Positions 43,001 through 47,853 of a DNA stretch of 64,000 nucleotides are shown here, in pieces. The position numbers and the translations under genes are program-made. Source of the stretch: Escherichia coli (GTDB lineage Bacteria; Pseudomonadota; Gammaproteobacteria; Enterobacterales; Enterobacteriaceae); NCBI RefSeq assembly GCF_024502345.1, contig NZ_JALDNN010000001.1; one strand, given 5' to 3'. Numbering within the stretch: position 1 is the stretch's first letter; each line of letters opens with the position of its first letter. The notes below the pieces were generated by a model. That model was not told where the DNA came from. It ran no database searches and worked only from the letters and a program-made list of their open reading frames with translations.

Positions 43001-46000
43001 TTAGTCAAACGGCGGTGGGGCCAGCACTTCACGATTACCGTTGTGCCCCTGTTCGCTGACAATCCCCTGCGCTTCCATCTGTTCGATAATACGCGCTGCA
43101 CGGTTATAACCAATGCGGAACTGACGCTGTACGCCAGAAATTGACGCTTTGCGTTTTTCAGTGACAAACTGCACCGCCTGATCGAACAACGGATCCAGTT
43201 CTTCAGCGCCATCGAAACCGCCCGCGCCACCTTCGCTTTCACTGTCGGAAGTGATGCCATCAACATACTGTGGGCGACCACGCGCTTTCCAGTCCTGCAC
43301 CACGGCATGAACTTCCTGATCGCGAACAAAAGCACCATGGACACGTACCGGCAACGTGGAGTTCGGCCCAGAGTAGAGCATATCCCCCATCCCCAGCAGT
43401 GATTCCGCGCCAGCCTGATCAAGAATGGTACGTGAGTCAATCTTACTGGATACGGTAAAGGCGATACGGGTCGGAATATTCGCTTTAATCAGACCAGTAA
43501 TAACATCAACCGATGGACGCTGAGTTGCCAGTACGAGGTGGATACCCGCGGCACGGGCTTTTTGCGCCAGACGTGCTATCAGCTCTTCCACTTTTTTACC
43601 TACCGTCATCATCAGGTCGGCAAATTCGTCAACCAACACCACAATGTATGGTTCTTTTTTCAGCACCGGATGCTGGGCATCCATACTGTCACCCGGCTTC
43701 CAGTACGGGTCTGGAATCGGACGCATCATGCGATCGGCTTCAGCAATTTTTTCGTTATAACCCGCCAGATTACGCACACCCAGCGCAGACATCAGTTTAT
43801 AACGACGCTCCATCTCGTTAACACACCAGCGCAGCGCGTTGGCGGCATCTTTCATATCAGTAACGACTTCCGTTAACAGATGCGGAATGCCTTCATAAAC
43901 CGAAAGCTCCAGCATTTTCGGGTCGATCATGATGAAACGCACATCTTCTGGCTGTGCTTTATAAAGCATGCTCAGGATCATCGCGTTCACACCGACAGAT
44001 TTACCGGAACCGGTAGTCCCCGCAACCAACAAGTGCGGCATTTTCGCCAGATCGGCAACCACCGGCTCACCGGCGATATCTTTACCCAGCACCACGGTTA
44101 ATGGCGACGGATTATCGCGGAATTTGGCGTTATCCAAAACTTCGCGCAGATAAACGGTTTGTCGTTTTTTATTTGGTAACTCCAGACCTACATAGGGTTT
44201 GCCAGGAATAACTTCAACGACACGCACCGCCACCGTCGAAAGTGAACGGGCAAGGTCCCGTGACAAGTTAGAAATGCGCGCCGCTTTTACGCCAGGAGCC
44301 AGGTTAAGTTCAAAGCGAGTGATAACCGGCCCCGGAGAGTAATTGACGACATCGGCTTTAATACGGAAATCAGCCAGACGCGCTTCCACCAGGCGAGCCA
44401 TTTGTTCAAGCGCAAAGGTATCTACCGGCTCCACTTCGCTCGGCGGCGGTGTCAGCAAATCCAGAGAAGGCAGCGGCGTCGTCGGTTTATGCAACGGACG
44501 GCTGTCGCCATTACGCATCAACAGCGGATGAAGCAGGGTATCCTGCGGCTGTGGCGCAACTGGCTGTTGTGGCTGCTGATACTGCGGCTGCGGCGCAACC
44601 GGTTGTTGCGGCTGTTGATACTGCGGCTGCGGCGCAACTGGTTGTTGCGGCTGCTGATACTGCGGCTGCGGCGCAACCGGCTGTTGCGGCTGCTGATATT
44701 GCTGCTGTGGCGCAACCGGCTGTTGTGGCTGTTGATATTGTGGCTGCGGCGCAACCTGCTGTTGTGGCTGCTGATACTGCGGCTGCGGCGCAACCTGCTG
44801 TTGTGGCTGCTGATACTGCGGCTGCGGCGCAACCGGCTGTTGCGGCTGCTGATATTGCTGCTGTGGCGCAACCGGCTGTTGTGGCTGCTGATACTGCTGC
44901 TGCGGTGCAACCGGTTGTTGCGGCTGCTGTACAGGTTCAACAATTGGCGTAAACAACGGTTCGTGTGGACCATCATCCAGCAACGCTTTCATTGGCGAAA
45001 ATTCAAAATCATCCAGCGAGAACGGATTCGCCCCAGCCGGTTGTTCGCCGGAATAACGTTGTTGTTGAGTTTGCGCAAACTGACGAGCCAGTTCAGCCTC
45101 TGCCGCAGCATCTGCATCTTCTGCGTTTACGGGCACATCATGTTGATACTGTTCGCCATAGCGTTGCTGCTGTGTCTGGGCGAACTGACGTGCCAGTTCA
45201 TCCTGCTGCATCGCATCGATTTCATCATCGTTATACTGATCGCCAGAATCATACTGATTGCGCTGGGCTTCACGGGCTTTCTCTTCCGCCGCACGCTGTG
45301 AGGGCAGCTTAATACCGTAAGACGCCAGTTCACGACGAGTTGGCACGCGGATACGTTTCGGTCGTGGCAACTGCGGGCCAATCCCCTCTTTGACTTGCGG
45401 ACGCGGTCCACCGCTATTTGCCAGACTGAAGACTGGCGCGGCAACGGTTGCGGCAGCCCCCGTCGCCAGTGTCGCTTTTTTCACGCCAGATGCCAGCGGA
45501 GAAACAGCGGCAGCGGCTTCTACTGGAGGTACTGCTGCAACAGAAGGCGCTTTCAACGAAGATTTGATCGGTTCTGGTTCTTTAACCGGTTCTGGAATCG
45601 GTTGATACCAGGCCGCAAGTTGTTCACGTTCACGGGCTCGCTTCTCTTCCACTTCTTCAAAATAGTAAAGCGGCGGACGCGCGGGTTTTGTCTCTTCTAC
45701 AACGGGTTCAGGCTCCACAACAGGCTGCTGTTCAACGGGTTGCGGCTGTTGGTACAACGGCTCCTGAGCGGCTGGCTGCTGATAAGTTTGCTCAGTCTGG
45801 TATGTAGACTGTGGAGCAAAAGTGGATTGCTGCTCTTCGGCTTGCCAGGCGTTACCTGCCACCGGTTGTTCTGGCGCAGGGGCATAATACGGCTGTTGCG
45901 CAGGCTGTTCCGGCGCAGTTGCATAATACGGTTGCTGAACAGGTTGTTCCGCCGCAGGAGCGTAGTAAGGTTGTTGCGCAGGTTGTTCAGCTGCAGGTGC

Positions 46001-47224
46001 ATAATACGGCTGCTGTGGCTGTACTGGTTGTTGCAGCGGCTCATTATATTGCACTGCAGGCTGCGCATATTGTGGCTGCTGTGGGTAACCTTCCGGTGCA
46101 GGAGCAATAACCGGCTCTCCCGTTTGTGGACCCGGTACAGGCTGCCAGGCTACTGTAGGTTGCGAAGGTGGAACATCAACAGAGGCAACAGGCGGCGTCT
46201 GAGTCACAGGTTCAACCGGCGCAGCCCAGCTTTGTGTCGCCGTGGTAGCAGCAGCTGCTACAGCGACAGGTTCGGTAATTGGCGCACCGTTTAATAATGG
46301 ATCGTATTCGTCATATTCTGGCTGCGTTGCACGATTGCCCGAAAATAGGACGTCGTCAGGGTCGGCAGCCACACCGCGTGCAGTGTAGGTAATCTCTTCG
46401 TCATCATCCATCCGCTTACCGGAGAACAACGCAGCGTCTGTTTGCCGCCCCATCGGATTAATGAATTTTTCCGCCAACCGTTTACGACGCGCTAGCGCGC
46501 CGCGAAGAATACGAGCACGGCGTGATTCATGCTGTTTGCCGTGGTTTTCATCTTCATACTCTTCGTCATCTTCATATTCATCTTCATCGACCCAGGTATC
46601 ATCGCGACGGGTACGATTACTGGCGAAGGTGAGAATGTTTAAAATCCAGCCGCCGAGTTTTTCAGCAATGGTCACCCATGACCAACCGGTGAACAGCGTC
46701 AGGCCCGCTGCCCAAACGCAGAGCAGCGCAATAGTTCCCCCGCTACTGTGTAGCAGTGGTTGTAGCGTAGTACTTAGTAAGCTGCCAATGACGCCACCGG
46801 AGGCAAAATACCAGATATCGTCAGCGTTGATTGCCGCCAGACCACAGGAGGTAAGGATGAGCGCCAAAACGCCAATGATGCGTAGCGAAACGGCAAAATA
46901 ATCAATGTATTCGTCGCTGGACTGATGACGCCAGGCAAACCAACAACCGCCGACAATAATGACGGGAATGGTGTAAGCCATCACGCCAAAAATAAAGAAC
47001 AGCGTATCTGCCAGCCACGCACCGGGCATCCCACCTAAATTATGGATAGGTTCATGCCAGGCCGTTTGCGACCAGCTGGGGTCCGAAGGGTTAAAGCTTA
47101 GTAAGGCAGCCATCAACCAGACGGCAAACAGGACAATAAGGATCAGCAACGCTTCCAGAAGGCGACGGCCGCTACTTAACTTTGTCAATGTGACTTCTTT
47201 GTCTTCAGTGTATTCCTGGCTCAA
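43001..47224 (-). CDS. ftsK: DNA translocase FtsK, with expanded low-complexity linker (1407 aa)
   Basis: ORF track, 1407 aa; N-terminal membrane domain, PQ-rich linker with two tandem-repeat arrays, C-terminal motor (Walker A GTTGSGKS). Confidence 0.95.
44544..44930 (-). repeat. ftsK: Tandem 39-bp repeat array A in the ftsK linker (about 10 units, in-frame)
   Basis: Plus-strand unit ctgcggctg(c/t)ggcgcaac(c/t)gg(c/t)tgttg(c/t)ggctg(c/t)tgata repeated head-to-tail; encodes QQPQQ(P/Q)VAPQ(P/Q)QY. Confidence 0.85.
45867..46030 (-). repeat. ftsK: Tandem 39-bp repeat array B in the ftsK linker (about 4 units, in-frame)
   Basis: Encodes EQP(A/V)QQPYYA(P/T)A(A/P) four times; plus-strand unit gg(c/a)gcagg(g/t)gcataatacgg(c/t)tg(t/c)tg repeated. 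Confidence 0.8.
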
Positions 47225-47300
47225 GAAAGGCTCTCCAGGTTACAGGCTTTTCCTGCCCGATGCTAAAACGGACAACAGTACCAGGTTACCCCAGTACTGT

Positions 47301-47320
47301 TGCTGTATGGATTAACAGGA
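47301..47320 (-). promoter_or_regulatory. LexA (SOS) box upstream of ftsK (dinH promoter)
   Basis: CTGT-atggatta-ACAG (47303..47318) fits the CTGT-N8-ACAG SOS-box consensus, about 80-95 bp upstream of the ftsK ATG. Confidence 0.7.
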
Positions 47321-47358
47321 GTGTAATCAAAATACGCCGATTTTGCACCTGTTCCGTG

Positions 47359-47853
47359 TTAGCGCGTCTTAATAACCAGACGATTACTCTGCTTGACTTC
47401 TTCCATAACAACGTATGTCCGTGTGTCATTGACGCCAGGCAGACGCAGCAGGGTTTCCCCCAGCAACTTACGGTAAGCTGACATATCCGGCACGCGTGTT
47501 TTCAACAGGTAGTCGAAATCACCAGATACTAAATGACACTCCTGAATTTCTTCAAGTTTTTGTACAGCGGTATTGAATTGTTCAAACACATCCGGTGCGC
47601 CACGATTCAGAGTAATCTCAACGAATACCAGAAGTGATGCATCCAGATAATGGGGGTTAAGCAGCGCCGTATAGCCCTGAATAAACCCTTGTCTTTCCAG
47701 CCGACGCACACGCTCAAGGCACGGCGTTGGGGAAAGTCCCACACGTTTAGAAAGCTCGACGTTAGAAATACGCCCATCCTTTTGCAACTCATTAAGAATG
47801 TTACGATCGATACGGTCGAGATCTTTGCCAGGGCGCTTCTTGCTATCTACCAT
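47359..47853 (-). CDS. lrp: Leucine-responsive regulatory protein
   Basis: ORF track 47359..47907. ATG at 47853 gives MVDSKKRPGKDLDRIDRNIL... (164 aa). Confidence 0.97.
   Translation of the reverse strand: MVDSKKRPGKDLDRIDRNILNELQKDGRISNVELSKRVGLSPTPCLERVRRLERQGFIQGYTALLNPHYLDASLLVFVEITLNRGAPDVFEQFNTAVQKLEEIQECHLVSGDFDYLLKTRVPDMSAYRKLLGETLLRLPGVNDTRTYVVMEEVKQSNRLVIKTR

Follow-up and report, generated by a model that had tools for sequence, protein, structure and literature searches.

The tandem repeat at positions 45860..46015 on the minus strand of the window (the whole stretch of 64,000 nucleotides of Escherichia coli DNA that was analysed) is the established MLVA/VNTR locus ms06 and as such already known. 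This repeat, referred to as array B, consists of four in-frame 39-bp units (aa 404-455) in the gene ftsK. It is most probably a coding minisatellite that lies in the low-complexity linker of FtsK and evolves slowly. The four-unit form would be ancestral, while the three- and two-unit forms would represent clonal deletions with nearly neutral effects.

The host gene and its linker

Array B and a second repeat, array A, are both located in ftsK (43001..47224, minus strand), which according to the list of open reading frames, Pfam and the RefSeq annotation of homologous loci encodes a protein of 1407 aa with a TTG start codon. The Pfam search revealed the domains FtsK_4TM (PF13491, aa 20-191), FtsK_alpha (PF17854, aa 918-1018), FtsK_SpoIIIE (PF01580, aa 1026-1239) and FtsK_gamma (PF09397, aa 1342-1402), all far over the gathering cut-offs, which identifies the protein as an FtsK/SpoIIIE DNA translocase. 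The matching region is labelled 'DNA translocase FtsK' by RefSeq in every E. coli match, and lrp and trxB are the annotated neighbours of ftsK in the homologous loci.

Between these domains, no Pfam domain was detected in aa 192-917. This linker of about 700 aa (K-12: about 650 aa according to the literature) is rich in proline and glutamine and of low complexity (Q 18%, P 16%, A 13% in aa 201-915), as is characteristic of FtsKL. According to the literature, FtsKL is unstructured, rich in Pro and Gln and variable in length; cells can grow without it, and it contributes to divisome interactions and to full dimer resolution (PMC5357621; PMC3140498; PMC5391129). Array B lies within such a region between FtsKN and FtsKC, as described by Bigot 2004 and Dubarry 2010. 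In the open-access literature consulted, FtsKL is characterized in bulk terms only ('lacks any evolutionarily conserved feature'), and the YY-containing units are not singled out there. A conserved motif of 31 aa (aa 516-546; 45587..45679, minus strand), recognized by its invariant alignment columns, is present 60 aa C-terminal of array B and served as the positional anchor for the comparison of linkers from 80 Enterobacteriaceae loci.

An Rfam scan of both strands from 44000 to 47500 yielded no family at gathering score. Long open reading frames in other frames or on the other strand (e.g. 45395-46294 on the plus strand and 45697-46107 on the minus strand) were regarded as by-products of the repeat composition within a conserved, annotated gene.

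Structure of array B

Tandem Repeats Finder detected array B with a period of 39 bp at 45864-46012 (3.8 copies, 77% matches) and alternatively with a period of 78 bp at 45864-46015 (1.9 copies, 82%). In the frame of ftsK, the array comprises exactly 4.0 units of 13 codons, namely U1 (45977-46015), U2 (45938-45976, peptide ending ..AAEQPV), U3 (45899-45937) and U4 (45860-45898), all on the minus strand. The first-pass annotation had noted about four in-frame 39-bp units at 45867-46030; unit and coordinates were thus right to within a few bases. Directly N-terminal of U1, a partial or degenerate leader encodes LQQPVQP (46016..46036, minus strand). It contains CAACAACC, which is microhomologous to the beginning of U2 and forms a deletion endpoint in strain ZJ3920. 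The identity of the array with itself at a lag of 39 bp was 0.76. This value lies far outside chance expectation: when the codons of the N-terminal linker part were shuffled 2000 times, it was never reached (mean 0.395, maximum 0.51).

Identity with the typing marker ms06

The published ms06 primers match the window exactly, the amplicon measures 379 bp, the unit is 39 bp long and the alleles comprise 2 to 4 units; array B and ms06 are therefore the same locus. The marker reportedly goes back to Gorge et al. 2008 (J Clin Microbiol 46:1026). The binding sites of the reverse primer (TGTTGGTACAACGGCTCCTG, 45747..45766, plus strand; primer from PMC8215070, Table 1) and of the forward primer (AAACGGGAGAGCCGGTTATT, 46106..46125, minus strand) each occur once in the window, with 0 mismatches. 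The amplicon of 379 bp corresponds to the four-unit allele at the top of the published range, which covers alleles of 2, 3 and 4 units of 39 bp and amplicons of 301-379 bp (PMC8215070). In Shigella flexneri, where ms06 bears the alias SF33, alleles 2-4 occur with a diversity index of 0.15 (PMC2806262). There are zero structural differences between marker and array: locus, unit size and the allele set 2/3/4 are the same. The typing papers treat ms06 as an anonymous size marker, and neither ftsK nor the peptide nor the origin of the alleles is mentioned in them (PMC8215070, PMC2806262). As a known typing marker in a linker of known variable length, array B carries little weight for genome annotation.

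Comparable markers are further in-frame coding minisatellites in envelope and division proteins of enterobacteria, for instance SENTR1, a 45-bp repeat in tolA that is used in MLVA. Its unit is likewise a multiple of 3 bp, it forms a low-complexity spacer in a tether-like region, and its copy number is also stable enough to mark lineages. Gene and peptide differ, however, so that this is an analogy of kind only.

Copy-number variation in E. coli

Allele frequencies were obtained from 2 x 60 systematically spread rows out of 5,426 complete E. coli genomes, in which clinical lineages are over-represented. Four units were present in 41 of the 120 rows, three units in 42 and two units in 36; the one remaining row had two units and an additional 18-bp deletion. 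With a 501-bp query, spans of 501 bp (20), 462 bp (21) and 423 bp (18) and one odd allele were found in 60 sampled genomes. The in-silico ms06 amplicons of 60 sampled genomes measured 379 bp (21), 340 bp (20, and one divergent three-unit allele) and 301 bp (18). The weakest-ranked records were those of ZJ3920 (two units with the 18-bp deletion) and CFE299 (divergent three units). Alleles with one unit or with at least five units did not occur in the 120 rows, a sample in which frequencies below about 1-2% would escape. K-12 and O157:H7 both possess two units, which in K-12 cover aa 404-429. The array is therefore not an invariant part of the linker, a possibility considered in the first-pass annotation, and alleles of 4, 3 and 2 units each account for about one third of the sampled genomes. 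The frame was kept in all 30 alleles read (25 from E. coli and 5 from other Escherichia), because the unit measures 39 bp. Successful lineages were found with each of the three E. coli alleles, all of which are common.

Draft assemblies break in the ftsK repeats, and many matches in protein databases are partial FtsK sequences. This could give rise to the suspicion that the polymorphism is an artefact of repeats collapsed or expanded during assembly and that array B is truly invariant. Such an explanation is highly improbable, as all sampled genomes are of 'complete' level and only three discrete sizes occur, which differ by exact multiples of 39 bp. Moreover, independent PCR studies obtained the same amplicons of 301-379 bp and the same alleles 2-4 (PMC8215070; PMC2806262), and the shorter alleles carry chimeric units together with linked flanking SNPs, as described below.

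An intragenic tandem repeat whose copy number varies within a species might also be a hypermutable contingency locus that rapidly switches the properties of FtsK within lineages. This reading is hardly credible for array B. A 39-bp in-frame unit does not allow on/off switching as in phase-variable loci, and slippage is disfavoured by a DNA identity of only about 77% between the units. Unrelated isolates from around the world share identical alleles, and one FtsK protein accession is common to five strains from different hosts and continents. Furthermore, the diversity of ms06 within serotypes of S. flexneri is only 0-0.11 (PMC2806262).

Origin of the shorter alleles

The allele of K-12 and O157:H7 consists of U1 and U4, each base-for-base identical to the respective unit of the window, and the junction lies within an 11-bp microhomology (CCTGCGCAACA). 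The common three-unit allele is composed of U1, U2 and a U3/U4 chimera, and the allele of CE0007a of a U1/U2 chimera, U3 and U4. In ZJ3920, a deletion between leader and U2 is combined with a U2/U3 chimera, and CFE299 possesses a further three-unit variant. Flanking SNPs in the shorter alleles are linked to specific chimeric units. The chimeric units point to at least four independent in-register deletions from the four-unit form. By parsimony within E. coli, we infer that the copy number changed from 4 to 3 or 2; between Escherichia species, the 39-bp units are too short to resolve unit-to-unit orthology.

Array B probably arose in the Escherichia lineage when one ancestral segment of the type Q-P-Y-Y-A-P was tandemly amplified to units of 13 codons. 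These units have since become strongly divergent at synonymous sites, with the peptide QQ[P/S]YYxxx[P/A]EQxx being kept. Rare changes in copy number would occur by in-register deletion, and presumably also by duplication, between neighbouring units via short stretches of retained homology, putatively through replication slippage or unequal recombination. Each such 39-bp event would preserve the frame and add or remove 13 residues in the tether that connects the membrane/divisome domain to the DNA-pumping motor. The four-unit form of the window would represent the ancestral state in E. coli, and the three- and two-unit forms, including that of K-12, would be derived and clonally inherited. With a linker of about 700 aa, a gain or loss of 13-26 residues is probably close to neutral for its function.

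FtsK of K-12, the reference for almost all work on this protein, accordingly appears to combine a derived 78-bp deletion in array B with a short array A. The linker that is 'wild-type' in experiments would consequently lie at the short end of natural variation.

Array A and the independence of both arrays

Array A (44543..44929, minus strand; aa 766-894) is the VNTR locus ms07 and comprises about 10 in-frame 39-bp units (Tandem Repeats Finder: 9.9 copies, 90% matches). For the ms07 primers, exact matches lie at 44447-44466 and 45170-45189, which results in an amplicon of 743 bp. Both arrays are 930 bp apart, and the 297 aa between them are constant in length in 25 sequences.

ms07, which corresponds to STTR7/SENTR2 in Salmonella, resembles array B in that it lies in the linker of the same gene, has the same period of 39 bp or 13 codons and is in frame, Pro/Gln-rich, Tyr-bearing and polymorphic. 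Its unit sequence is a different one, however, and its units are more alike (90% vs 77%). Its alleles are more numerous, with 4-10 units in our samples from other strains (frequencies from one systematic spread sample) and 1-12 in the literature. In addition, ms07 is conserved in Salmonella, whereas array B is absent there. In the best rotation, the consensus peptides of both arrays agree at 5 of 13 positions, and 4327 of 5000 residue shuffles gave at least as many matches. The DNA units agree at 21 of 39 positions, a level attained in 65 of 5000 mononucleotide shuffles; this likeness is mostly due to shared CAG, CAA and CCG codons and is attributed to the Gln and Pro content. As the resemblance of the peptides is not above chance, array B is indeed a repeat family distinct from array A, as had been proposed in the first-pass annotation.

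The assumption made there that the linker contains two independently expandable modules also agrees with the counts from 25 fetched loci, 24 of which could be scored for both arrays. Four units of array B occurred together with 6, 6 plus 5 aa, 7, 9 or 10 units of array A, three units with 5, 6 plus 5 aa, 7 or 8, and two units with 6, 6 plus 5 aa or 7. The copy numbers of both arrays hence vary independently. The 78 extra codons of the window, whose distribution between the arrays had been left undecided, can now be divided: in comparison to a K-12 derivative, array B accounts for 26 (4 vs 2 units) and array A for 52 (10 vs 6 units).

Two strains of S. Enteritidis differ by an in-frame indel in the repeats of the ftsK linker, and exchanging it between them made no difference in a single assay (PMC6137255). 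This bears on array B only indirectly, because it concerns Salmonella, the other array and one phenotype (egg-white survival).

Constraint on the unit and occurrence in other genera

Between the units of array B, dN was 0.03-0.11, and dS ranged from 0.67 to saturated. The differences are thus mostly synonymous, which indicates a constraint on the peptide. Among 22 distinct Escherichia units, neither E10 nor Q11 varies. All units of all arrays that were read contain YY, although the count of 22 out of 22 is not independent for these two positions, since YY was required in the search. The strong purifying selection on the unit peptide, seen in the invariant YY and EQ, shows that the array is not mere filler and leaves open a role for its copy number.

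Five other Escherichia species-level genomes possess 2-5 units of array B. Citrobacter has one degenerate PQYYAP-like segment, and in Salmonella no array B was found at the linker; judged by these comparisons, array B is restricted to the genus Escherichia. At the same position of the linker, unrelated Tyr-bearing arrays of Pro, Gln, Glu and Ala are present in Klebsiella, Raoultella, Enterobacter, Superficieibacter, Pseudocitrobacter, Leclercia and others. Their periods range from 24 to 198 bp (most 36-81 bp), with 2-3 aromatic residues per 12-24 aa. The first-pass annotation considered the Tyr-rich units to be uncommon in a disordered linker, a view that must be abandoned: regularly spaced tyrosines in a matrix of Pro, Gln, Glu and Ala are the rule at this site across the Enterobacteriaceae, and array A also contains one Tyr per unit.

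These data also bear on the idea that the YY units are functional short linear motifs, acting as 'stickers' in a Pro/Gln spacer, and that a copy number of 2-5 tunes their valency under selection. With aromatic residues every 6-10 positions in a Pro/Gln/Glu matrix, the array would then be multivalent rather than a passive spacer, a possibility that is rather unlikely. The linker would require YY units at one fixed site, roughly 20-70 aa upstream of its conserved motif, and different Tyr-bearing units would have been amplified there repeatedly and independently in different genera. The number of units (2-5 in Escherichia and about 10 at most in other genera) would set the strength of a weak interaction, either between FtsK molecules at the closing septum or with a divisome partner. 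The conservation of the unit peptides despite saturated synonymous divergence, the invariant E/Q at positions 10-11 with YY in all units read, and the independent Tyr-bearing expansions in other genera would fit this idea, as would the interactions of the linker with FtsZ, FtsQ, FtsL and FtsI reported by Dubarry 2010, as cited in PMC5357621. Against it stand the absence of the array from Salmonella, the single degenerate copy in Citrobacter and the fact that each of the three E. coli alleles is frequent and occurs in successful lineages. Recurrent expansion may also be purely mutational in low-complexity regions, and no partner or phenotype is known to map to aa 404-455. A nearly neutral minisatellite with a constrained unit peptide is thus the preferred explanation. 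Regardless of this, the conserved YY/EQ peptide, together with the recurrent Tyr/Pro/Gln arrays elsewhere, provides a testable handle on a linker that is usually called featureless.

A protein search with the linker segment yielded mostly truncated FtsK fragments, including some from Salmonella, and no protein of full length. Short-read assemblies break at the ftsK repeats, and this accounts for the large number of 'partial FtsK' entries in protein databases. The search also revealed one relative with a single unit (P0029/P0031), perhaps from E. fergusonii, the closest matches of which belong to Escherichia (62-78% identity).

Two repeat arrays in the FtsK linker

In the window, ftsK (43001-47224, minus strand, TTG start) encodes a protein of 1407 amino acids with the canonical set of 4TM, alpha, motor and gamma domains; amino acids 192-917 contain no recognisable domain. 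In the linker (FtsKL) between the membrane domain and the C-terminal motor part, two arrays with a period of 39 bp were detected by Tandem Repeats Finder (TRF): array A (44543-44929, minus strand, 9.9 copies, 90% matches) and array B (45864-46012, minus strand, 3.8 copies, 77% matches), the latter alternatively being read as a 78-bp unit (1.9 copies, 82%). Translated in the ftsK frame, array B consists of exactly four units of 13 codons (U1 to U4; amino acids 404-455, window 45860-46015), directly preceded by a degenerate leader, LQQPVQP. Its identity at lag 39 was 0.76, against a maximum of 0.51 in 2000 shuffles of the linker codons. The first-pass annotation, which had described an in-frame 39-bp array of about four units, was therefore correct within a few bases; the repeat is confirmed and its interpretation supported.

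Array B is already known as the typing locus ms06, and both linker modules are established VNTR loci. The MLVA panel made for Shigella and used on E. coli (Gorge et al. 2008) contains the 39-bp loci ms06 and ms07, whose primers are given in PMC8215070. Both primers of ms06 have perfect matches in the window (46106-46125 and 45747-45766) and enclose array B in an amplicon of 379 bp; those of ms07 match at 45170-45189 and 44447-44466, on either side of array A, with an amplicon of 743 bp, equal to 10 units. For ms06, alleles 2, 3 and 4 with amplicons of 301-379 bp were published (PMC8215070), and these three sizes are exactly those found here in silico. In S. flexneri, ms06 (alias SF33) likewise has alleles 2-4, with a diversity of 0.15 overall and 0-0.11 within serotype groups (PMC2806262). 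The 39-bp VNTR in ftsK of Salmonella is termed STTR7 or SENTR2 (PMC2430564). The gene context or the peptide of ms06 and ms07 is not discussed in the typing papers PMC8215070 and PMC2806262.

Copy number of array B in E. coli

A 501-bp query covering array B had a match in 5,425 of the 5,426 complete E. coli genomes compared, in each case within annotated ftsK. Sixty records drawn at regular intervals from the ranked matches had spans of 501 bp (20 records), 462 bp (21) and 423 bp (18), and one carried an odd allele. A second sample, independent of the first, used the 379 bp bounded by the published ms06 primers and gave amplicons of 379 bp (21 records), 340 bp (20) and 301 bp (18) besides one divergent 3-unit allele. 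Translation of 25 fetched loci showed that these sizes represent four, three and two units. Two units occur in K-12 derivatives and O157:H7, three in ATCC 25922 and O104:H4, and four in O121, O111:H8 and the window; alleles of one or of at least five units were not seen in E. coli in the two systematic samples and the 25 fetched loci. Array B is thus polymorphic among the sampled complete genomes, as had been proposed, and not an invariant part of the linker. An assembly artefact was rejected as the source of this polymorphism, since the alleles are discrete and were confirmed by PCR studies.

Most of the database proteins matching the linker (P0001-P0080) were FtsK fragments, truncated and derived from short contigs, and some had frame-shifted tails; draft assemblies evidently break or are mis-assembled within the ftsK repeats.

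Origin of the alleles and constraint on the unit

The four units of the window all differ from each other in DNA sequence. K-12 and O157:H7 share a 2-unit allele made up of U1 followed by U4, base for base as in the window. It represents a clean 78-bp deletion with its junction in an 11-bp microhomology (CCTGCG/CAACA) that occurs at the U1/U2 boundary and again at U3/U4. In the common 3-unit allele, U1 and U2 are followed by a chimera that begins (5') as U3 and ends (3') as U4. In CE0007a, a U1/U2 chimera is followed by U3 and U4; ZJ3920 has lost the leader and U1 via the microhomology CAACAACC and also carries a U2/U3 chimera, and CFE299 shows a further, different 3-unit arrangement. Judged by these junctions, the short alleles go back to at least four independent in-register deletions, all derivable from a 4-unit array. 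The latter is probably the ancestral form in E. coli, because the reverse would require that U2 and U3 were re-created with many private synonymous differences. The changes in copy number would come about by slippage or by unequal recombination of diverged units. Such events are rare, as one identical FtsK protein accession is common to five isolates from different hosts and continents, and the diversity of ms06 within Shigella serotypes is near zero.

Pairwise, the units of the window differ at 6-10 of 39 bases, and nearly all differences are synonymous (U1 versus U2: eight codons with synonymous changes only, one with an amino acid exchange). Between units, dN ranged from 0.03 to 0.11 and dS from 0.67 to saturated. 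A comparison of 22 distinct units, taken from E. coli and five further genomes of Escherichia at species level, showed E10 and Q11 to be invariant and positions 6-9, 12 and 13 to vary. No unit of any array B read lacked the YY pair; the search for the 22 units itself demanded YY and is excluded as support. The mostly synonymous differences, the invariant E10 and Q11 and the YY pair in all units indicate that the units are old and that purifying selection acts on the peptide QQ[P/S]YYxxx[P/A]EQxx. Alternatively or additionally, the units may have been selected for DNA divergence that stabilises the array.

Array A and its relation to array B

With 1407 versus 1329 amino acids, FtsK of the window is 78 residues longer than that of K-12, and longer than all fetched alleles. 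Compared to a K-12 derivative, array B contributes two additional units (26 codons) and array A four (10 versus 6 units; 52 codons), which settles how the 78 extra codons, left unassigned at first, are divided. The segment between the arrays had a constant length of 297 residues in each of the 24 sequences in which both were scored. Four units of array B were found with 6, 6 plus 5 amino acids, 7, 9 or 10 units of array A, three with 5, 6 plus 5 amino acids, 7 or 8, and two with 6, 6 plus 5 amino acids or 7. The counts combine freely in these sequences, in agreement with the first-pass annotation, in which two independently expandable modules were assumed.

In a systematic sample of array A amplicons, 6 units were found in 23 records, 7 in 23, 8 in three, 6 plus 15 bp in three, 5 in one and 4 in one; six records were uninterpretable. 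No match at least 99% identical to the 10-unit array A of the window was obtained when its amplicon was compared to 5,426 complete E. coli genomes. Array A of the window therefore lies at the long end of the range; O121 RM8352, the strain closest to the window by array B, has nine units.

At the best rotation, the unit peptides of the two arrays agree in 5 of 13 positions, a score attained by 4327 of 5000 shuffles as well. A peptide relationship is thus not demonstrable, and the description of array B as a distinct repeat family holds. The weak resemblance at the DNA level is due to common Gln/Pro codons.

An extra 15-bp partial unit (QQPQY) is present inside array A of ATCC 25922 (L002), ZJ3920 (L003), F3_13_1_3 (L005) and three sample matches (H109, H112, H113). 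The resulting 602-bp amplicon is off the multiples of 39 bp and would be mis-scored as a fractional allele in gel-based MLVA.

Distribution in Enterobacteriaceae and possible function

The GTDB species-representative genomes were scanned once with a linker alignment (80 loci). Among these, the YY unit occurred as a tandem array only in Escherichia, with five units in E. whittamii, four in E. albertii, four in an 'E. coli' genome ranked as a separate species by GTDB, and two each in two further species. An Escherichia-like FtsK from Logan contigs (P0029 and P0031), with 62-78% identity to that of E. coli in this segment, has a single QQPYYASAPEQSV unit, which may represent the state before duplication; E. 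fergusonii as its source is a guess. Citrobacter species possess one PQ(P)QYYAP-like segment. In the Salmonella linker, the YY segment is absent and array A is kept.

At the linker position of array B, many other genera have in-frame arrays of their own, unrelated to array B and built from Tyr-bearing Pro/Gln/Glu/Ala units, 20-70 residues upstream of a conserved motif including RPPLYYFEE. Examples from Klebsiella, Raoultella and Enterobacter are QPQQPAYQEPQYA (10 copies), EPQYQPYAEQPVA (four copies) and 24-amino-acid units such as PEQAPVQQPAYQPEPAYQPQHAYQ (six copies). Altogether, such arrays (loci L053-L061, L075, L079, L085-L089, L097 and L100; Klebsiella, Raoultella, Enterobacter, Superficieibacter, Pseudocitrobacter, Leclercia and others) have periods of 36 to 198 bp and up to about 10 copies. 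Tyr-rich units, regarded as unusual for a disordered linker in the first reading, are therefore on the contrary typical of this one. Their arrangement at a fixed position looks like recurrent independent expansion, a modest side lead.

FtsKL is described as an unstructured, Pro/Gln-rich tether, varying in length and composition by species, which is dispensable for growth and helps in contacts with FtsZ, FtsQ, FtsL and FtsI and in full chromosome-dimer resolution (PMC5357621, PMC3140498, PMC5391129). The sole allele-swap experiment found exchanged ftsK linkers of S. Enteritidis that differ by an in-frame repeat indel of 84 bp, and the phenotype assayed stayed unchanged (PMC6137255). Array B is very probably a coding minisatellite that evolves slowly within a flexible tether, in which steps of 13 residues are tolerated and inherited clonally, and therefore serves as a typing marker. 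The main rival is that the YY units act as functional multivalent motifs and tune an interaction by their copy number; it is compatible with purifying selection on the unit peptide and with the recurrent arrays of other genera, and we consider it rather unlikely. A contingency locus was rejected, as the alleles keep the reading frame, fall into discrete sizes and are stable within clones.

Further features of the linker

Open reading frames of 136-299 amino acids in other frames or on the opposite strand cover both arrays (44402-45301 and 45395-46294, plus strand; 44518-44976 and 45697-46107, minus strand). Their products are repeats rich in Leu/Arg or Ser/Arg/Asn; they were regarded as by-products of repeat composition rather than as genes.

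A short acidic repeat lies right behind the membrane domain (46547-46588, amino acids 213-226; TRF periods 6, 9 and 18), and similar Asp/Glu/Tyr repeats occupy the same place in other genera (loci L029, L031, L048, L049, L069 and L078). A 14-amino-acid motif is present in two copies separated by 21 residues (45158-45199 and 45053-45094; amino acids 676-689 and 711-724); the duplication also occurs in Salmonella and Klebsiella fragments in the form ELARQFA(Q/A)(S/T)QQ(H/Q)RY. Whereas the FtsK linker is devoid of conserved features according to the literature, a motif within it (45587-45679, amino acids 516-546) is nearly invariant across the genera of Enterobacteriaceae.
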